DNA of 51,727 nucleotides from Candidatus Thalassarchaeum sp. (GTDB lineage Archaea > Thermoplasmatota > Poseidoniia > Poseidoniales > Thalassarchaeaceae), in the NCBI GenBank assembly GCA_022449945.1, contig JAKURM010000004.1:1-51727 (forward strand), in the 5' to 3' direction. Under the pieces are notes generated by a model, which was given only the letters and a program-made list of their open reading frames with translations, had not been told where the DNA came from and made no database searches. The translations under genes were made by a program, and so were the position numbers. Shown here in pieces: positions 15,846-25,086 of this stretch; positions within the stretch are counted from its first letter, which is position 1; the number at the start of each line of letters is the position of its first letter.

Positions 15846-15968
15846 CGAATAATCACAGAAGGCGGTATGGACGCCTCTCCCGGGGCGATGCGATAGCCGA
15901 GCGCAAGCATGCGAGTCGCAAGGTTTTTGAAGACCCCCTAGGTCGGAGGATAGCCCAGCATTAGCCAT

Positions 15969-16042
15969 GGGCCTGTAGCTTAGTCAGGTAGAGCGCCGGG
16001 CTTTTAACCCGGTGGCCGGGGGTTCGAATCCCCTCAGGCCCG
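15969..16042 (+). tRNA. tRNA-Lys (anticodon TTT)
   Basis: GGGCCTG/CAGGCCC acceptor stem, CCGGG-CTTTTAA-CCCGG anticodon arm, GGTTCGAATCC T arm; no encoded CCA. Confidence 0.97.
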
Positions 16043-16092
16043 CCTGCTTGCTACTCAGGCCCTCGCTTTTCTGGAACCCGGGAGGCGAAATA

Positions 16093-16680
16093 ATGGCCGT
16101 AAAAAGCTCCACTAAGAAGAGACTTGTCGAACTAGGAATCGCGGAAGAGCACGCACACAGATTGGCCGACGACGCCAATCTAGATGCAATCAAGAGGATG
16201 TCAAGGGAACAGGTTGCAAAGAAAGTTGGAATCGAGGATAGCGATTCGGCTCTTGATCAAATAATGGGTGTAATCAGTGAACATGTAGGTTCCCGTAAGA
16301 GGACTAAGAGTAACCGAATTACCATTTCCCGCAAGGCCCTTCTCGAGGAAGATATTCCCAGGGGGGATTTCAGGTTCAATGTACTCAATCATTTCCTTGT
16401 CCCTCATCACGAACTGGTTCCAATCGAATCGGAGGAAACTGAGTTAGCGCCATGGGGGCTAAAGACTTCCGACGTTCACGGAAACAACCGGCTGGCGAAG
16501 GAGCTTCTTCCAAAAATACTGATCACCGATCCTGCAATTCAGGCCATAAAAGAAATGGAGGAGTTGGAAAACGACGAGCTCCCGGCGGGTTGGCTGACGA
16601 ACCGAGTCGTCAGAATCCGAAGGTATAGTAGATCGGCCGGCAGCTCGGTTGCATTTCGCTTGATTGTAGAGAGCGCATGA
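16093..16680 (+). CDS. rpoH: RNA polymerase subunit H (Rpo5) with N-terminal extension
   Basis: HFLVPHHE..LPKILITDPA..VVRIRRYSRSAG..FRLIV; ATG at 16093 after GGAGG; first gene of the rpo operon. Confidence 0.9.
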   Translation: MAVKSSTKKRLVELGIAEEHAHRLADDANLDAIKRMSREQVAKKVGIEDSDSALDQIMGVISEHVGSRKRTKSNRITISRKALLEEDIPRGDFRFNVLNHFLVPHHELVPIESEETELAPWGLKTSDVHGNNRLAKELLPKILITDPAIQAIKEMEELENDELPAGWLTNRVVRIRRYSRSAGSSVAFRLIVESA

Positions 16681-19600
16681 TTAGGGGTGAAAAAGTGAAG
16701 GAGATAGTTGAGAGTTATTTCAAGCAAAGAAGTCTGGTTAATCACCAGTTGGCGTCATACAACGATTGCATTCCCATTGGAGATGGGAAGGAAAGCCGAA
16801 TGGAGTCCATTGTCAGGAATATCAAGATTGGGAGCGATGAGCATTTTGATGATGACGAGGGTGGCTTGGTTAAACTCGATCTTCTCGACAAGGAGATTGT
16901 TGTAAGGCTGAAGAATTTGAGATTAGGGCGCCCCACGATAAAGGAGGCCAATGGGGCTGAGCATCCCGCTACTCCCCTAGAGTGCCGAATCCGAAAACTT
17001 ACTTATTTTTCTCCAGTATACCTCGACTTCAAGATTTATCGTGACGATTTACCTCCCTCTCCAGGCGCAGAACTTGGTTACCTCGAGGAGAAGGGAGTCC
17101 ATATTGGCAACTTGCCGATAATGGTACGCTCTGCTAGGTGCAACCTTCATGCCGGACATATCGATGAGAATCGGAGACTCTCCCCCGAGTCCTCGGATGA
17201 AGACGCTGAGCGCTACCAGAAGCTCCTTAGAAAATCCGGTGAAGATCCACTAGATCCGGGTGGATATTTCATCATCAATGGCACCGAAAGAGTCCTAATC
17301 TCGATGGAAGATCTGGCTCCGAACCGAGTAACAGTTGAGAAGAACAAGAAATATGCACATGAGACGCAGGTCGCAAAAATCTTCTCCCAGAAAGATGGAG
17401 TTCGGAAGCCCCTGAACGTCGAGAAGAGAAGGGACGGGATGTTAATGGTCAAGATTCCCAGTGCCGGAACCACACCAGTTCCATTGGTGTTACTCATGCG
17501 AGCATTGGGTGTTGAGAACGACAGGGAGATTTTCGCTTCAATTGCAGGTCCACCCGAGGCAATGAAATACACTGTTGCCAACCTAAATGATCTAAGGGAC
17601 AACGACGAATATGGGGTCGATACGTGCGATGAAGCCCTTGGTTGGCTTGAGAAGAAATTCGCCGCCGGCCAGCAGAAGGAATACCGTGAGTCACGGATCC
17701 AGAACCTGCTAGATAACGAACTCCTTCCTCATTTGGGTTCTACCTTCGAAAATAGAGAGAAGAAGGCCATTTTCTTGGGAAGAATCGCACGGCAAGTTCT
17801 GGAAATGGCAATTAAGGACAAGGATCCCAATGACAAGGATCACTATGCCAATAAGCGAGTAAGACTAGCAGGAGACCTGGTAGAGGATCTGTTCCGTGTC
17901 AGCTTACAGCAACTTGCCCGGGATCTAAAATATCAGTTGGAAAGGCATCACAACCGAAAGAGGGAGCTTCGAATATCCTCCTGCCTTAGGCCAGACGTGC
18001 TTACCACCAAAATCATGCATGCCCTTGCGACAGGAAACTGGGTGGGTGGTAGATCGGGTGTTAGCCAGCTGCTGGATCGTACTACATACCTGTCTGCACT
18101 ATCCCATCTGAGGCGAGTTACCAGTCCTCTAGTTCGGAGCCAACCACACTTCGAGGCTAGGGATCTCCACCCAACGCAATGGGGTCGACTTTGTCCAAAT
18201 GAGACGCCGGAAGGACAGAATTGCGGCCTTGTAAAGAACGGTGCCCAGATGATAGACATTTCTGAAGAAGTTCCCGAAGCAGACGTCAAAGATTTGCTAA
18301 AGGAGGCTGGAGTTAATGACAATCCAGATGGTTGGGCGGATGGCTCAAGGATTCACGTTAATGGGGATATATTCGGACTACACAAGAGGCCACACAAACT
18401 AGTGAGCCAATTCAAGAGAAGAAGACGCTCGGGAAGGATAAGGCCAGAAGTCAGCATAGGTAATGACTTGGAGAACAGTGATGTCTTCATCAATTCTGAT
18501 CGCGGTAGTATGCTACGTCCCCTGCTAATCATAGAACACGGCAGCCTTCAGATAACAAAGATGCATTTGGAGGGACTGAGGTCCGGTGAAATTTCATTTT
18601 CCGACTTAGTCTCAGGTGGAGTAATTGAATGGGTCGATGCCGAAGAAGAGGAAGATCTTCTGATTGCACCCAGGCCGTTTGACCTGCCGGCAGAGTCACC
18701 TAGGAATAAGAGGCCGATTAACCCATCCAAGGTTCAGTGGACAAACCTTGGAGAAATGGGCAAGGACTCTGACGGAAAGCCCGTACCACTATCTTACGCG
18801 CAATTGATTGCCGAGGTACAGATGCCCAATGGAGAGACGAAGAACGAGAAGTTCAGAGTCCCGCTGAACTACTACCAAGAGAATATTGATGCCCTAAAAA
18901 GGAAAGAAAAGAAAGGCAACACTGTACTAGTATACACCCATGTGGAGATTGACCCCCAACTAATTCTCGGAGTCTGTGCTTCTCTGGTTCCATACCCGGA
19001 ACACAATTCCACTCCGCGTGTAACCGGTGGAACTGCCATGGTAAAGCAAAGCCTTGGGGTGGCCAGTGCGAACTTTCGCCTTAGACCCGATACCAGAGCC
19101 CACGTGATGCACTACCCACAGAGGTCAATTGTTGGCACTCGTGCTATGCAGTCCACGAACTTCGACCAAAGGCCAGGCGGGCAAAATTACGTTGTCGCCA
19201 TAGTTAGCCATCACGGTTACAATATGCAGGACGCCGTAATTATGAATCGCTCTTCGGTGGAGAGGGCCCTAGGAAGGTCAGCATTCGTTCGTACATACAA
19301 TGCCGAGAATAAGAGATTCCCAGGAGGGCAGGAAGAGAGGATTGAGATCCCAGGAACCGGATTAGATGAGATCAAGGGACTCAAGTCATGGGATTCATAC
19401 TCGCACCTAGAGAGGGACGGCCTACCCGTTCCAGAGGAGGAACTGACCAGCGAAGAGGGAGGCCGATCAATTCTTGTTGGCAAGACCAGCCCTCCAAGAT
19501 TCCTCGAGGAGGCTCATGGGGCGTTTTTGCAAGCGCAAGAGAGACGAGAGTCATCCATGCTTGTTAGGCATGGGGAGAAGGGCTGGGTAGACAATGTATA

Positions 19601-20414
19601 CGTCACCGAATCTCTCGATTCCGGTAGACTAGTAAGGATTACACTTCGAACAAACAAGATTCCGGAGCTTGGAGATAAGTTTGCAAGTAGGCACGGTCAG
19701 AAGGGAATCATTGGCAGGCTCGTAAACCAAGAGGACATGCCATTCACCGAGGATGGAGTAATCCCTGATCTTCTGATAAATCCTCATGCAATTCCATCTA
19801 GGATGACTGTCGCACACGTATTGGAGATGATAGGTGGCAAGGTCGGCTCAATGGAAGGTAGGAGAATTGACGGTACCGCCTTCACAGGTGAGAAAGAAGA
19901 GTCACTAAGATCCGGCCTACTCCGAAACGGACTAAAGCATACTGGGAGGGAACAAATGATCAACGGAGAAACCGGAGAAAACTTCCCTGTTGATACCTTT
20001 GTAGGGGTGATATACTACCAGAGACTACACCACTTGGTAAGCAGCAAACTGCATGCCAGAAGCAGAGGAAGGGTCCAGATTCTAACTAGGCAACCAACGG
20101 AGGGAAGGGCTAGGCAAGGTGGCCTCAGGTTTGGTGAAATGGAGAGGGACTGCCTCATCTCACACGGGGCATCGATGGTGATCAAAGACCGACTTCTTGA
20201 TGAATCCGATGGCTGGAACCTCATGGTTTGCAATACTCCCCGTTGTGGGCATGTAGCCTACTACGACTGGAAGCGAAGAACCAGTGTTTGCCCGGTCTGC
20301 GGAGATAGGGCCGATGTCCATTCCGTACAGACTTCGTATGCATTCAAACTACTCCTGGATGAGATGAAGAGCTTGGGTGTTGCCATGAGGCTGGAACTGG
20401 AGGATCGAAGATGA
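16677..20414 (+). CDS. rpoB: RNA polymerase subunit B (unsplit Rpo2)
   Basis: GGYFIINGTER, ETPEGQNCGLVKN, GDKFASRHGQKG, RFGEMERD, C-terminal Zn ribbon. Confidence 0.98.
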   Translation: MIRGEKVKEIVESYFKQRSLVNHQLASYNDCIPIGDGKESRMESIVRNIKIGSDEHFDDDEGGLVKLDLLDKEIVVRLKNLRLGRPTIKEANGAEHPATPLECRIRKLTYFSPVYLDFKIYRDDLPPSPGAELGYLEEKGVHIGNLPIMVRSARCNLHAGHIDENRRLSPESSDEDAERYQKLLRKSGEDPLDPGGYFIINGTERVLISMEDLAPNRVTVEKNKKYAHETQVAKIFSQKDGVRKPLNVEKRRDGMLMVKIPSAGTTPVPLVLLMRALGVENDREIFASIAGPPEAMKYTVANLNDLRDNDEYGVDTCDEALGWLEKKFAAGQQKEYRESRIQNLLDNELLPHLGSTFENREKKAIFLGRIARQVLEMAIKDKDPNDKDHYANKRVRLAGDLVEDLFRVSLQQLARDLKYQLERHHNRKRELRISSCLRPDVLTTKIMHALATGNWVGGRSGVSQLLDRTTYLSALSHLRRVTSPLVRSQPHFEARDLHPTQWGRLCPNETPEGQNCGLVKNGAQMIDISEEVPEADVKDLLKEAGVNDNPDGWADGSRIHVNGDIFGLHKRPHKLVSQFKRRRRSGRIRPEVSIGNDLENSDVFINSDRGSMLRPLLIIEHGSLQITKMHLEGLRSGEISFSDLVSGGVIEWVDAEEEEDLLIAPRPFDLPAESPRNKRPINPSKVQWTNLGEMGKDSDGKPVPLSYAQLIAEVQMPNGETKNEKFRVPLNYYQENIDALKRKEKKGNTVLVYTHVEIDPQLILGVCASLVPYPEHNSTPRVTGGTAMVKQSLGVASANFRLRPDTRAHVMHYPQRSIVGTRAMQSTNFDQRPGGQNYVVAIVSHHGYNMQDAVIMNRSSVERALGRSAFVRTYNAENKRFPGGQEERIEIPGTGLDEIKGLKSWDSYSHLERDGLPVPEEELTSEEGGRSILVGKTSPPRFLEEAHGAFLQAQERRESSMLVRHGEKGWVDNVYVTESLDSGRLVRITLRTNKIPELGDKFASRHGQKGIIGRLVNQEDMPFTEDGVIPDLLINPHAIPSRMTVAHVLEMIGGKVGSMEGRRIDGTAFTGEKEESLRSGLLRNGLKHTGREQMINGETGENFPVDTFVGVIYYQRLHHLVSSKLHARSRGRVQILTRQPTEGRARQGGLRFGEMERDCLISHGASMVIKDRLLDESDGWNLMVCNTPRCGHVAYYDWKRRTSVCPVCGDRADVHSVQTSYAFKLLLDEMKSLGVAMRLELEDRR

Positions 20415-23400
20415 GTGCACGCGACGCAGCAAAGATTCCAAAGCGAATCGACTCAATCAGGTTCACCCTTATGGATCCGAATGAAATAAGGAAGATGTCA
20501 TCAGTAGAGGTAAAGACGGCGGACACTTACAAGGACGATGGCCATGCATTCAAGCAGGGTTTGATGGATCCAAAGATGGGGGTCATTGATCCTGGAATAA
20601 GGTGCGAGACATGTGGCAACAAGCACGAGGAGTGCCCCAGCCACTTCGGACACATTGCTCTAGAGCTCCCCGTGATGCACATCGGCTTCACTAACCTAAT
20701 CAAGAACTGCCTAAAGTCAACATGCAATTCTTGCAGCAAGGTCCTGTTACTGGACGCCGCCGAAACCCACCCAACCGATCCGGAAAAGTCCGAACAGGAT
20801 TACTACAGGGACAAGGTGCATGACATCATTCTCAAGCACGGCGTCGGCGGTCGTGAATTCAAGAAAGTCATCAAGGATATCGAGACCGTTTGCTCTAGTG
20901 CCAAGAGGGCCATCTGCATGCATTGCGGCGCTGAACAGGGCAAGATAATCTTGGACAAGCCTACGACCTTCAAAGAGAAGAAGGCCGACAAGGGCGAGCA
21001 CAAGCTGAATGCTAGGGACATAAGAGAGTGGCTAGAGAAAATTCCTGACGAGCACTTAATTTTCGTTGGAATGGAGAAGGATGTGAGCAGGCCCGAATGG
21101 ACGATCATGAAGGTTCTGCCTGTCCCGCCGATAACCGTTCGGCCCTCTATTACTCTTGAGAGTGGAGACAGATCGGAAGATGACTTGACACACAAACTAG
21201 TCGATGTACTTAGGATCAACCAGCGGCTACGAGAAAATCGTGACTCTGGGGCACCACAGCTAATTGTGGAAGACCTATGGGAGTTACTTCAGTATCACTG
21301 CACAACTTATTTTGACAACCAAACCAGTGGAATACCACCAGCACGCCATCGGTCCGGAAGGCCCCTGAAGACACTTTCTCAGAGACTGAAAGGAAAAGAG
21401 GGAAGGTTCCGTAGCAACCTCTCTGGAAAGAGGGTCAACTTCTGTGCCAGAACTGTCATCAGCCCCGACCCCAATCTTGGAATTAACGAGGTCGGGGTCC
21501 CCGTAACAACAGCAAAGGAACTAACGGTCCCAATCAGGGTTACCAGCCGAAATAGAGAACAGTTGCGGCAGATGATTCTACGCGGTCCAGATGTTCACCC
21601 TGGAGTAAATTACATTATCCGAGGAGATCGATTCCGCGTCCGAATTACCGATCGAACTAAGTTCATCTGGTCAGGATTCAGATGCCTCAATCCGGAATGC
21701 CATTCTGGTAGCGAGGAAGAGCCATACATGGGTTACCAACCGGAGTTGAACCAAGTCCTACCTGCACCCAATTTCCTTCCAGGCCTAGTACTAAAGGAGC
21801 AAATGCGGAGGGATCACATTACTGACGAGCTTCAGAAAGAGTGGAGCGTCGACCTCGAAGCGACTTTGTCTAACCTAAGGGGCGAGGATTTGAGTGGCAA
21901 CCAACTTCCTGAAGACGATCCCAATGCTGTAATACATCATCGTTGGAAGTGGGAAGTAGAGAACCCGGACGACTACCTACCCGAGTATCTAGAAGTACGT
22001 TGCCCACACTGTGGGAGTCCCGAGGTAGAGGATGAACACGGCAATGTCTTCCCTACTGATGTTGAGGACAGACTCAGCACTTACGATAGGGATGGAAACC
22101 CCCGTCCGGGGGTGGTCGTAGAACGCCATCTGATTGATGGTGATGTTGCGATTTTCAACCGGCAACCATCATTGCACAGGATGTCAATGCTAGTTCATGA
22201 AATTAGAGTCATGGAAGGTAAGACATTCCGCTTCAACCTTGCTGATTGTACTCCCTACAACGCAGATTTCGATGGAGATGAAATGAACCTACATGTAATT
22301 CAGAGCGAGGAAGCAAGGGCCGAAGCCCGAATCCTTATGCGAGTGCAGGAGCACATAATTTCCCCAAGGTATGGTGGAAGCGTTATCGGTGGGATACACG
22401 ACCACATCACCGGGGCTTACTTGCTAACGCATGGGGAAGCATTCCTCCCTCGCCAGGCTGCTCTGGACGTACTGAGCTCCATAGGGTGGGATGGCAATCT
22501 TCCCGAACCGGTGGAAAGGAATGGACAAGTCGGTTACTTTGGAAATGAGATTTTCAGCCTTCTAGTCCGAGGGGGCTTTGAACTGAACTTCAAGAATCGC
22601 GCGGGCGAGCCCGTTTCCGTGACGGCCGGCGACGTCTCCGGTGCCATTGACAAGCGCGGAATCGGGGCCGAGGATGGAAGGCTCCTAGATGCCGTGGTAC
22701 AGACTCACGGAACAGATACCGGTGCTGAGTTCATCAATAAGATGACTAAAATGACCATTGCAATATGTACAGCTATGGGATTCACCACTGGAATTGATGA
22801 CGAAGATCTGCCCCCGGAGGCAAAGGATGAGATTGATAGAATTAACCGAGCTGCCAGTGAGAAGGTAGACGAAGAACTTGCCAGTTTCGGAAAAGATGGC
22901 AGGAAGTACGAGGCCAGACCAGGGCGAACGCCACTGGAGACCCTTGAAGAGAATATTTTGACGATTCTTGACGAGGGCAAAGCCGAGACCGGAAATGTAG
23001 CAAAATCACTGTTGGGAGAAAATAACTCGGCGGTTTTGATGGCAACATCCGGAGCTAGGGGTTCTATGGACAATCTCGCTATGATGGCCGGCTCCATTGG
23101 TCAGCCAAAGGTTAGGGGCAAGCGACTAGAGAGGGGGTATCAGGATCGAGTTCTTTCACACTTCCCTAGGAATGTCAAGGGCGCCAAAGAGAAGGGGTTC
23201 GTCTCTTCTTCTTTCAAGAGTGGCCTCGAGCCTACGGAGTTCTTCATGCTGTCTGTCTCAGGAAGGGAATCCCTTGTGGACACTGCAGTTAGGACTAGTA
23301 AGTCAGGTTACATGCAGAGGAGGCTGATTAACGCAATGGACGATCTAAAGGTAGCAGATGATGACAGGGCTTCTGTCAGGAACACCGCCAACAGAATCAT

Positions 23401-23506
23401 CCAGTTCGAGTACGGCGAGGATGGCATTGATCCTGCAAGGAGCCGTAAGGGAAGCCCATTCGATGTCAACCAAGTCCTGAACGATGCGCTTGGAGGTGGT
23501 AAGTGA
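20411..23506 (+). CDS. rpoA1: RNA polymerase subunit A' (Rpo1N)
   Basis: [11 protein letters not shown] catalytic motif, [30 protein letters not shown]. Confidence 0.98.
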
Positions 23507-25086
23507 TGGTTGTAAAGAGTGCCACCAAGAAGAAACTGATGGACTTGGGAATCGAGGAGGAGTACGCTCACAAGTTGGCAGATGACAAGAAGTGGGATGA
23601 CGTCAAGGGCCTCTCTCCAGGGCAGATTGCACAGATTTGTGGCATAGACTCTGGGACGTCCCAAAGAATCCACGAGGTTATGGCAAACTCTGCTAAGTCC
23701 AGTCGGGCTTCTACAGCGACATCTGAGAAGACGATTGTTCGCAGAAGAACAGTTTCTAGGTCTCGTAGAATGAAGAGGTCCCTTCCCCTGGAGGAATATG
23801 ACCAAGAGTCTAAGATTATCCAAATCGGACGTGACGTGGACTCAGATGACGAGATGTACCTAAAGCTATCAAAGGCTGCTAGTGATGCTAATGCTGGCAT
23901 GACTCCTAGAATGCTAGACGATCTTGTCAAGGGCTTGGAGAAGAGGGGAGAGAAGAAGTTTACCGATGCGAAGGCAAGGAAGATTATCCAGTCCGCCATG
24001 AGCTTTGCCAGTGAGTCCAAGGCAGTACCATACGAGGCTGTGGGAATCACAAGAGCCCAGTCTATTGGAGAACCAGGTACACAAATGACCATGAGGACAT
24101 TCCACTACGCAGGAGTAGCAACGGTGAATGTGACCCAAGGTCTTCCTCGAATTATCGAAATAGTCGATGCTAGGAAAGTCCCTAAAACACCAACAATGAT
24201 CATCTATCTTGATGAACAGAACGCAAAGAAAAAGCCTCTTCGGACAAACGAGAAATTAGTCCGAAATATAGCAGCTGCACTCGAGACCACAACAGCCACT
24301 GATATTGCTGCCATCGATGTAGACGTGGCCCAGAGGAACATCAGCCTACAACTGAATAATAGCAATATGAAGCTGAAAAAGATGACTGGCGCTGAGGTTC
24401 GTGATAAACTATCAAGGGCATTGAGGCTATATGTTCAGGCAGACAATGATGACCGCCCCAAGTCACTTCGTATTATTCCTGGAGTCACAAAGGAAGATGA
24501 TCTGGCGTCCTTAGCCTCTGATCCGCCAACCTATACCGCACTACTCCAACTAGAGGACAAGATCAAGAAACTCAGACTTAAGGGACTTCCTGGAATTTCC
24601 AGGGCTAACGTCCAGGGCCCGGTTGCTGAAACAGGTGAGTATTACATCTCCACTATTGGCTCCAATCTTTCTAAAGTGAGTGAGTTTGCCGGAATAGACA
24701 AATCAAGGACATACACAAACAACATCAACGAAATTCATGACTACCTAGGAATCGAGGCTGCTCGGCAGGCGATTATCAACGAGATGTGGGATACTCTTGA
24801 GGGAGCCGGTCTAGATGTAGATGTCCGTCATCTGATAATGGTCTCAGACGTTATGACAAATGGTGGCGAAGTTCGGGCCATTGGTCGGCATGGAGTTAGC
24901 GGTACTAAGCACTCAATTCTTGCACGTTCAGCCTTCGAGGTGACCGTCACGCACCTCCTTAAGGCTGGGATTATTGGCGAGAGAGATATGCTTTCTGGAG
25001 TAACCGAGAATATCATTGTTGGCCAGCCAGTAGCTTTGGGTACGGGAAGCGTTGAACTGTATTACATCCCTGAGGCAACTAATTGA
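23506..25086 (+). CDS. rpoA2: RNA polymerase subunit A'' (Rpo1C) with long N-terminal extension
   Basis: [47 protein letters not shown]. Start is ATG 23506 or GTG 23503. Confidence 0.97.

Follow-up and report, generated by a model that had tools for sequence, protein, structure and literature searches.

A small helical domain duplicated at the N-termini of the RNA polymerase subunits RpoH and RpoA'' in the archaeal order Poseidoniales

Two RNA polymerase subunits with a common N-terminal domain

The 51,727-nucleotide stretch of Candidatus Thalassarchaeum sp. analysed here (assembly GCA_022449945.1, contig JAKURM010000004.1; hereafter the window) encodes an rpoH-rpoB-rpoA'-rpoA'' operon for RNA polymerase (RNAP), in which RpoH (Rpo5) and RpoA'' (Rpo1C) both begin with an extension. 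Approximately 94 residues precede the core in RpoH and approximately 134 in RpoA'', and the first 60-62 residues of each constitute a common domain that is followed by a basic tether. The genes and their individual regions are given below; rpoB and rpoA' were named from sequence reading and gene order, without a family scan.

Within 16093-25086, + strand: rpoH-rpoB-rpoA'-rpoA'' operon (open reading frame (ORF) list)
16093-16680, + strand: RpoH gene, ATG at 16093, 195 aa (ORF list, translation)
16093..16278, + strand: RpoH N-terminal domain, residues 1-62, RpoH-type copy (BLASTP against RpoA'', AlphaFold2 (AF2) model)
16279..16374, + strand: RpoH linker, residues 63-94 (composition, conservation)
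16315-16335, + strand: RITISRK motif, RpoH residues 75-81 (nearly invariant, 27 sequences)
16375..16680, + strand: RpoH core, residues 95-195 and stop, the Rpb5 C-terminal 'assembly' domain (PF01191)
16677-20414, + strand: rpoB, 1245 aa
20411-23506, + strand: rpoA', 1031 aa
23506-25086, + strand: RpoA'' gene, ATG at 23506, 526 aa (ORF list, translation)
23506..23685, + strand: RpoA'' N-terminal domain, residues 1-60, RpoA''-type copy (BLASTP against RpoH)
23686..23907, + strand: RpoA'' tether, basic and Ser/Thr/Arg-rich in residues 61-95, then an acidic lead-in, 96-134 (composition)
23728-23748, + strand: KTIVRRR motif, RpoA'' residues 75-81 (sequence position)
23908..25086, + strand: RpoA'' core, residues 135-526 and stop (TIGR02389, PF04998)

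A single BLASTP comparison of the two N-termini gave a gapless alignment with 27 of 52 positions identical and 38 of 52 positive (E 4e-14), and the genome from which the window derives (1.34 Mb, 88% complete) encodes exactly two copies of the domain. The initial annotation, made from the letters of the DNA, had proposed that RpoH and RpoA'' carry the same extra module, with 26 identities at 47 ungapped positions and an Arg/Ser-rich linker behind each copy. A recount likewise gave 26, both sequences were found where they had been placed, basic Ser/Thr-rich linkers were measured in both proteins, and the BLASTP result identifies the module as a true duplication.

Residues 95-191 of RpoH match PF01191 (E 3.8e-11, 43 bits against a cut-off of 23.5), and NF007129, an equivalog model of 80 positions, covers residues 94-193 only at 44.8 bits, below its cut-off of 83. 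Judged by sequence, the RpoH core is a diverged orthologue of RNA polymerase subunit H/Rpo5, which is supported by the gene order rpoH-rpoB-rpoA'-rpoA''. A Pfam scan at E <= 1 gave no match of RpoH to PF03871, the N-terminal jaw domain of Rpb5. RpoA'' matches TIGR02389 with residues 135-519 (E 8.6e-125; 416.5 bits, slightly under the cut-off of 420.65) and passes the cut-off of PF04998, Rpb1 domain 5 (E 9.6e-47, 160 bits against 28.5).

The RpoH linker contains Lys or Arg at nine of its 32 positions (net charge +4); in 27 sequences R68, T77, K81 and D87 are invariant, and R70, S73, I76, I78, S79 and P89 are at least 90% conserved. Residues 61-95 of RpoA'' hold 11 Lys or Arg, 12 Ser or Thr and a single acidic residue (net +10), and the lead-in that follows (net -6) is covered by no family model. 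An alternating hydrophobic/basic motif occupies identical residue numbers, 75-81, in both tethers (RITISRK in RpoH, KTIVRRR in RpoA''), and the likeness of the two extensions may therefore reach past the folded domain.

Evidence that the domain is translated

The following features surround the start codons of the two genes:

15969..16044, + strand: tRNA-Lys(UUU), directly 5' of rpoH (ARAGORN)
16081..16085, + strand: GGAGG, Shine-Dalgarno-like, 7 nt 5' of the RpoH ATG (sequence reading)
23492..23496, + strand: GGAGG 5' of the RpoA'' start (sequence reading)
23504-23508, + strand: RpoA'' start ATG overlapping the rpoA' TGA, as TGATG (sequence reading)

A longer RpoH frame from GTG-16012 was ruled out because the tRNA-Lys(UUU) overlaps it. 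Among 80 genome loci with RpoH, ten were dropped (contig end, or a frame length outside 193-197 aa) and 70 analysed; 80 related genome records include isolates of the AG-422-, AG-343- and AG-457- series titled without 'MAG' (metagenome-assembled genome), which from the naming habit we take to be single-cell assemblies. In the 70 loci the position of the RpoH start is fixed while its codon varies (ATG in 40, TTG in 25, GTG in 5), and the frame is always intact and in 68 loci exactly 195 aa long. For these 68 orthologues the domain had an amino acid identity of 0.75 and a ratio of nonsynonymous to synonymous differences (pN/pS) of 0.20, compared to 0.70 and 0.26 for the Rpb5-like core and 0.60 and 0.36 for the linker, the least conserved part; as synonymous sites are near saturation (pS 0.78) the ratios are rough, and the direction is clear, with the domain as the best conserved part of RpoH. 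Furthermore, contigs from metatranscriptome libraries (one study, two samples) span the tRNA, the start codon and the entire domain (X1 record 1, 15924-16349); such contigs show presence in RNA libraries only, not the start or level of a transcript, and uncovered stretches mean nothing. Since these contigs run from the tRNA into rpoH, co-transcription of the two is possible.

With the start position kept under varying codons and a pN/pS of 0.20 in the domain, translation is very unlikely to begin downstream of the extra segments, which the initial annotation had named as a refutation of its proposal, and on this coding pattern the domain is translated. A real start further downstream, with the 'domain' as an untranslated leader, or a fusion created by an assembly error, would find some favour in the 5' region: a GGAG, GAGG or GGTG word within 20 nt of the RpoH start was seen in only 19 of the 70 relatives, and the Shine-Dalgarno-like word at RpoH is thus not a conserved feature. 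Such an artefact is close to refuted by the low pN/pS at a pS of 0.78, by the intact frames of equal length and their conserved start, by the absence of any Met codon in the RpoH of the window after residue 58 and before residue 153, a position within the core, and by the presence of the domain in more than 200 genomes from independent assemblies.

Distribution in Poseidoniales and sister families

A search with a single sequence found the domain in 39 of 41 genomes of its own order. A profile built from 17 copies of the domain (A1) matched 88/90, 1/1 and 114/114 genomes of the families f1, f2 and f3, respectively, the f1 genomes without a match being incomplete (84-85% complete), and gave no match in the other families of the class (0/43 in f4 and 0/2 in f5, 0/45 together). 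The matches are paired, with one frame of about 200-250 aa and one of about 515-540 aa located about 7.4 kb apart on one strand, and an RpoA''-type match is found at residue 1 of the 513-541-aa frames across the order. Two copies per genome are the rule in the relatives; third copies in G241, G082 and G294 are duplicates of RpoH or RpoA''. The orthologues hence carry the segment, and the order-wide presence together with 0/45 sister-family genomes agrees with the lineage-specific nature that had been proposed for it. On these profile matches, the domain marks the order Poseidoniales.

Across all three families the paralogues are distinguished by R10, N29 and I33 in the RpoH type and by K10, M12, D13 and K29-W30-D31-D32 in the A'' type. 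Invariant in RpoH-type copies are V3, S5, T7, K8, R10, L11, G15, A21, H22, L24, A25, N29 and I33, and in 11 RpoA'' orthologues V3-D13, H22, L24, A25, K29, W30, D31, D32, V33, L36, I41, A42, C45 and S49. As the signature of either paralogue is invariant throughout the three families, the sequences indicate one duplication that is older than the radiation of Poseidoniales.

RpoH was found in 4/5 genomes of the sister families, as open frames of 83-121 aa, and RpoA'' in 5/5, as open frames of 762-860 aa. One ORF of each was delimited:

L027:1492-1737, - strand: sister-order RpoH, 81 aa (ORF)
L029:1486-3762, - strand: sister-order RpoA'', 758 aa (ORF)

The 81-aa gene and the 80 positions of NF007129 bear out the earlier statement that an ordinary archaeal RpoH has about 80 aa, compared to 195 here. 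The approximately 365-aa N-terminal extension of the 758-aa RpoA'' had no Pfam match, and the domain profile aligned to this protein with an hhalign probability of 1.4%, marking the two as unrelated; additions seem to accumulate at the RpoA'' N-terminus in this class. In G002, a MAG of the same genus, RpoH occurs twice, at G002:C5:11357-11542 (L022) and at G002:C17:17341-17535 (L023); the additional RpoH has an f3-like domain and is probably contamination or the sign of a mixed bin (contamination 3%).

Predicted fold

Profile and structure searches, which the initial annotation had suggested, returned no sequence family for the domain in Pfam, NCBIfam or the PDB. The PDB sequence search with the profile gave nothing meaningful (best E 0.015 over 15 residues), the helix-hairpin-helix (HhH) families of Pfam had no match for the window copies (best values HHH_3 E 0.11 and HHH_5 E 0.18, each in 1/17 sequences), and SAM_1 was not significant (E 0.13 in 1/17 sequences).

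The AF2 model of A1 (17 sequences; predicted local distance difference test (pLDDT) 82, predicted template-modelling score (pTM) 0.64) comprises helices at 6-13, 18-24, 30-34, 38-45 and 52-65, predicted to form two HhH units and a connecting helix, while residues 1-3 are predicted to be disordered. Foldseek found no match at E <= 0.001 (best E 0.54, TM 0.70), and its best rows, with TM 0.6-0.74, were the SAM domain of SARM1, N-terminal domains of RadA/RAD51, FANCM/FAAP24 and XPF. The exhaustive aligner VIA gave Z 7.2-5.4, a range which, being under 8, can reflect only a common arrangement of helices, with a root-mean-square deviation of 1.9-3.7 A, about 55-65 of 66 residues aligned and 8-18% identity. 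The matches were headed by the (HhH)2 domain of FANCM (9hjo_A, Z 7.2), the SARM1 SAM domain (7.2), Scm/Sfmbt (7.0), NusA (6.8), XPF (2kn7, 6.7) and Topo V (6.6), and included FAAP24 (4bxo_B, 6.1), NusA AR1 (6.1) and Hef (1x2i, 5.8); the top 35 rows are all of the (HhH)2, SAM or NusA AR type. Because these middling scores fall uniformly on one fold type, the model points to a SAM-like/(HhH)2 five-helix fold, in keeping with the HhH-like module reminiscent of the RadA N-terminal and NusA AR domains that had been anticipated, both of which are among the best matches.

The canonical GhG hairpin is absent: hairpin 1 reads L-G-[IV]-x, with the first Gly alone conserved. This residue, G15, is nearly invariant and preceded by a Lys cluster (K4/K8-K10), and acidic residues follow the hairpin (E17-E19 in RpoA'', E18-E19 in RpoH). 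Both copies have a net charge of -1 and are thus about neutral, and residues 3-11 are the most conserved part of the domain.

Occurrence in proteins other than the polymerase

When compared to 1.84 billion representative proteins, the A1 profile gave 207 matches at E <= 1e-3, of which the best 150 were listed and classified. Nearly all of these begin at residue 1, the exceptions including P0089, P0091, P0107, P0151 and a few with a short lead. By their tails, 14 are RpoH-like, 17 RpoA''-like, 48 too short and 71 neither. From the 71, we removed 11 RpoA''-fragment-like sequences, which consist of the whole domain and linker only, and P0076, a 2474-aa repeat protein with 16-residue matches only, and added P0060, which its RpoH-like linker had placed with RpoH. 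The resulting 60 non-polymerase carriers (among the best 150 of 207 matches) represent 33 unrelated body groups, 13 of which have at least two members that, owing to the way the library was built, share less than 50% identity.

The carriers include a family of 316-337 aa (A2), families of 210-225, 284-295 and 163-187 aa, and single proteins such as one of 1292 aa and Cys-rich proteins of 368 and 413 aa. P0064 (186 aa) contains two tandem copies of the domain, seen as two matched stretches, the first of which clusters with the RpoH from the genus of the window. The domain of P0089 lies near the C-terminus. P0091, an 851-aa protein found on metagenome contigs of 8-9.5 kb, has an internal RpoH-type copy (residues 93-144) and a C2H2 zinc-finger match, and is a putative defence-type ABC/OLD-like ATPase by its matches in PADLOC to the defence models NsnB (E 2e-38), AriA, AbiLi and GajA; among 15 carriers submitted to PADLOC it was the only one matched. 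Judged from residue types, 39 of the 60 carriers have the A''-type W30, nine the RpoH-type N29 and 12 neither.

A domain tree was constructed from 54 sequences and 63 columns; 19 of its 51 inner branches are unresolved, and starred branches alone were used. P0060 nests with the RpoH of L044/L045 (support 99/97), and P0079 and P0064 nest with the RpoH of the window's genus (support 99/92). As these carriers lie inside particular RpoH clades on well supported branches, the tree implies that the domain was captured repeatedly. By its profile matches the domain is not private to the polymerase and heads dozens of unrelated proteins, and its likely role therefore shifts towards that of a docking or interaction module.

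The other carriers were not found with the domain profile in 251 genomes of the class. An A2 profile matched 370 of 401 Poseidoniales genomes with 456 matches, the best 150 of which cover at most positions 1-107 of 334 and lie in RpoA'' frames, so that the A2 body was not found there, and a scan of genome contigs with P0079 gave nothing. The sole context seen is L043, the contig of the 413-aa P0159, whose domain and linker are 75% identical to those in RpoH of a Thalassarchaeaceae contig. The ORFs of L043 had no Pfam or PHROG function except for a ThiF-like gene, and no tRNA was found; PHROGs and Pfam applied to these ORFs and to nine carriers gave ThiF and otherwise weak or unnamed matches only. 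Of its neighbour genes, the 616-aa ORF was found in 0/151 and the ThiF-like ORF in 0/61 Poseidoniales genomes, in searches lacking a positive control. L043 fits an unbinned mobile element, a plasmid, a virus or a variable island of these archaea and proves none of them. Genes for the other carriers probably reside on mobile elements or in variable islands. An origin of the carriers by imprecise excision at the tRNA-Lys beside rpoH is unsupported, L043 having no tRNA.

Proposed role of the domain

According to the accessible text of PMC2675907 and PMC2847245, Rpo5/Rpb5 and the jaw of Rpo1C make up the lower jaw next to the downstream DNA, archaeal Rpo5 has no counterpart of Rpb5's first ~130 residues (the jaw domain), and the groove that thereby stays empty is taken up by Rpo13 in Sulfolobales and by an insertion of beta' in Thermus. 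Poseidoniales may have a solution of their own for the same jaw region, filling it with a small domain in duplicate, each copy on a flexible basic tether. The reading that we favour, at a probability of roughly one half, is that the two tethered domains serve as docking modules on the jaw of the polymerase and have been copied by mobile elements. The ancestor of Poseidoniales (Marine Group II) would have gained a ~62-aa five-helix SAM-like/(HhH)2 domain at the N-terminus of RpoH, and a paralogous copy would have been added at the N-terminus of RpoA'' in the same ancestor, each on a flexible basic linker (~30 aa in RpoH, ~35-75 aa in RpoA''). With one copy each on RpoH and RpoA'', every polymerase would possess two tethered copies which, going by the known place of the Rpo5/Rpo1C jaw, would be near the lower jaw at the downstream-DNA face. 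The domains would act as docking modules and not as a rigid part, reaching from the jaw to a common partner (which may be the sister copy, a factor, or DNA with the basic linkers contributing), comparable to the two tethered alpha C-terminal domains (alpha-CTDs) of bacterial RNAP. Through the copied module the other carriers would gain access to that partner, being brought to the polymerase or competing at it.

Docking is favoured by the near-neutral charge of the domain with its acidic stretch behind hairpin 1, by conserved Trp-Asp-Asp and His surfaces, by a free N-terminus that is predicted to be disordered but strongly conserved, and by the strict N-terminal position combined with the occurrence on many unrelated proteins; NusA AR domains, which are acidic, likewise bind proteins. 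Several points weigh against it. Structural Z values of 5-7 for a small helical domain can mean a common arrangement only, the location near the jaw is firm for the RpoH copy only, and binding of nucleic acid would also agree with the basic character of the N-terminal segment (K4, K8-K10) and of the linkers. Many carriers keep only profile positions 1 to ~31-50 and may not fold as a whole domain. The other carriers have no established genomic home: scans of IMG/VR with A1, P0097, P0083, A2 and the 616-aa ORF of L043 gave pattern matches only, none confirmed; tblastn of P0099 and the RpoA'' domain against 50,697 phage records, among which the presence of Poseidoniales viruses was unchecked, gave no match; and L043 is without a hallmark gene of a virus or plasmid.

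Alternative explanations

The two domains could instead form a DNA clamp, akin to the paired appendage proposed in the initial annotation, that is, a pseudo-dimeric (HhH)2 pair as in ERCC1-XPF or FANCM-FAAP24 that together with the basic linkers grips the downstream duplex without sequence specificity and replaces the Rpb5 jaw or Rpo13. The best structural matches do include the DNA-binding (HhH)2 heterodimer partners FANCM, XPF, FAAP24 and Hef, the nearly invariant G15 with the Lys cluster before it and the charges of the linkers (+4 in RpoH, +10 in RpoA'') would suit such a grip, and Rpo13, at the equivalent place, was proposed to contact DNA at +8 (accessible text of PMC2675907). We nevertheless consider the clamp doubtful, as the domain, of net charge -1, lacks the canonical GhG hairpin and has acidic residues behind hairpin 1, no HhH model of Pfam matches (HHH_3 E 0.11, HHH_5 E 0.18), and the conserved W30-D31-D32 and the strictly N-terminal location in dozens of unrelated proteins resemble a surface for protein recognition more closely. 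SAM and NusA AR domains, which are protein or RNA binders, also score equally well in VIA. SAM and (HhH)2 domains commonly form hetero-dimers, and the two copies might accordingly bind each other solely for the meeting of RpoH and RpoA'' or for the stability of the jaw, with no outward function and with the other carriers as by-products of recombination at highly expressed gene starts. That the two subunits are neighbours in the enzyme (accessible text of PMC2675907 and PMC13257274) and that exactly one copy of each type is kept per genome would fit such an aid to assembly. It appears quite unlikely all the same: these subunits come together without the domain in other archaea, the sister order among them; a static contact needs no long flexible tethers; and in the other carriers the conserved residues have survived divergence (13 body groups have members below 50% identity), which argues for selection on the module there too.

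An address tag was considered as well, in which the module, whose free N-terminus MVVKS(A/S)TKK is strictly conserved, would serve in localisation or sorting (for example to a nucleoid region, a compartment or a particle) and would be common to the polymerase subunits and the carriers. It would account for the domain being at residue 1 in nearly all of the 150 listed matches, for residues 3-11 being most conserved next to predicted disorder at 1-3, as in a partner-bound peptide, and for the many carriers that keep the first 31-50 positions only; with no partner, compartment or particle known, and with two tags on one enzyme being redundant, we rate it as very unlikely. A more speculative idea, which we regard as unlikely, extends the favoured docking modules: the domain would be a self-recognising handle in a host-parasite conflict over the polymerase. 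Mobile elements or viruses of Poseidoniales would have copied the polymerase's own domain repeatedly (the A'' type most often, the RpoH type at least three times from particular host clades), their proteins would bind to the partner copy on RNAP and divert or block transcription, and at least one host defence ATPase (the NsnB/AriA/GajA-like P0091) would contain an integrated decoy that senses hijackers.

Relation to known systems

Known lineage-specific additions to RNAP include the Rpb5 jaw, Rpo13 and bacterial sequence insertions. The Rpb5 jaw of eukaryotes is packed and not tethered. Like the domain described here, it is an extra domain N-terminal to the assembly domain of Rpb5/Rpo5 and is placed at the lower jaw close to downstream DNA, but it has no sequence relation to it (no PF03871 match, E <= 1), comprises ~130 residues compared to a 62-aa module, and is not duplicated on Rpb1. 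It is also a known docking site for regulators (accessible text of PMC2675907 and PMC13257274). Rpo13 of Sulfolobales/Desulfurococcales is a lineage-specific small helical addition to an archaeal RNAP as well, whereas it forms a subunit of its own, of 104 aa with a helix-turn-helix core, occurs as a single copy and belongs to Crenarchaeota; it can be compared by position and role only.

The alpha-CTDs of bacterial RNAP are two small helical HhH-like domains on flexible linkers that serve as docking sites for DNA and regulators. They may be taken as a working analogy only, being located at the C-termini of two identical alpha subunits as opposed to the N-termini of Rpo5 and Rpo1C and having no sequence relation to the domain; no alpha-CTD chain was among the best 50 VIA rows. 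NusA AR1/AR2, ERCC1-XPF and FANCM-FAAP24 are the best structural neighbours of the predicted model, as five-helix double-HhH domains with Z 7.2-5.4 and 59-65 residues aligned, though at 8-18% identity, without a profile match and with the canonical GhG hairpins that are absent from the domain here. NusA AR domains bind proteins, and XPF-family (HhH)2 domains pair on DNA. SAM domains match the model equally well (SARM1 Z 7.2, Scm/Sfmbt 7.0). They are mainly eukaryotic small modules with head-to-tail binding that occur on many unrelated proteins, a spread resembling that of the domain here, although SAM_1 itself was not significant (E 0.13, 1/17 sequences). What we describe would thus be an appendage of a known fold class with two unusual traits, its duplication onto two subunits and its sharing with proteins of obscure origin.

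Full-text literature searches returned no report of one small domain on two archaeal polymerase subunits, nor of one shared with unrelated proteins. The accessible text of a 2026 survey of small-subunit domains in archaeal RNAP (Rpo6, Rpo8; PMC13257274) mentions neither the domain nor Poseidoniales, that of a study on Poseidoniales-specific families (PMC9258230), supplementary tables aside, does not mention the domain, and that of PMC3906176 states archaeal RpoH to have no N-terminal extension. The domain represents a clade-wide change to the core transcription enzyme, as a marker of an order of abundant marine archaea, and offers a handle for biochemistry with recombinant parts, where the tandem copies of P0064 provide a natural test case for the packing of two copies. 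If the carriers are indeed polymerase-docking proteins of mobile elements, they would constitute a compact natural case of archaeal polymerase hijacking by domain mimicry.

Neighbouring features of the operon

The tRNA-Lys(UUU) was found about 50 nt 5' of rpoH in 5/5 loci checked, which cover two families of the order. In the relatives it is located as follows:

L014:1646-1721: tRNA-Lys(UUU)
L015:10033-10108: tRNA-Lys(UUU)
L044:9876-9950: tRNA-Lys(UUU)
L045:9875-9949: tRNA-Lys(UUU)

In RpoA', which is long at 1031 aa, CLNPEC and CPHC stand about 105 residues from one another and delimit a stretch (residues ~425-534, window positions ~21683-22012) which looks like a zinc-ribbon-type insertion in the large subunit.

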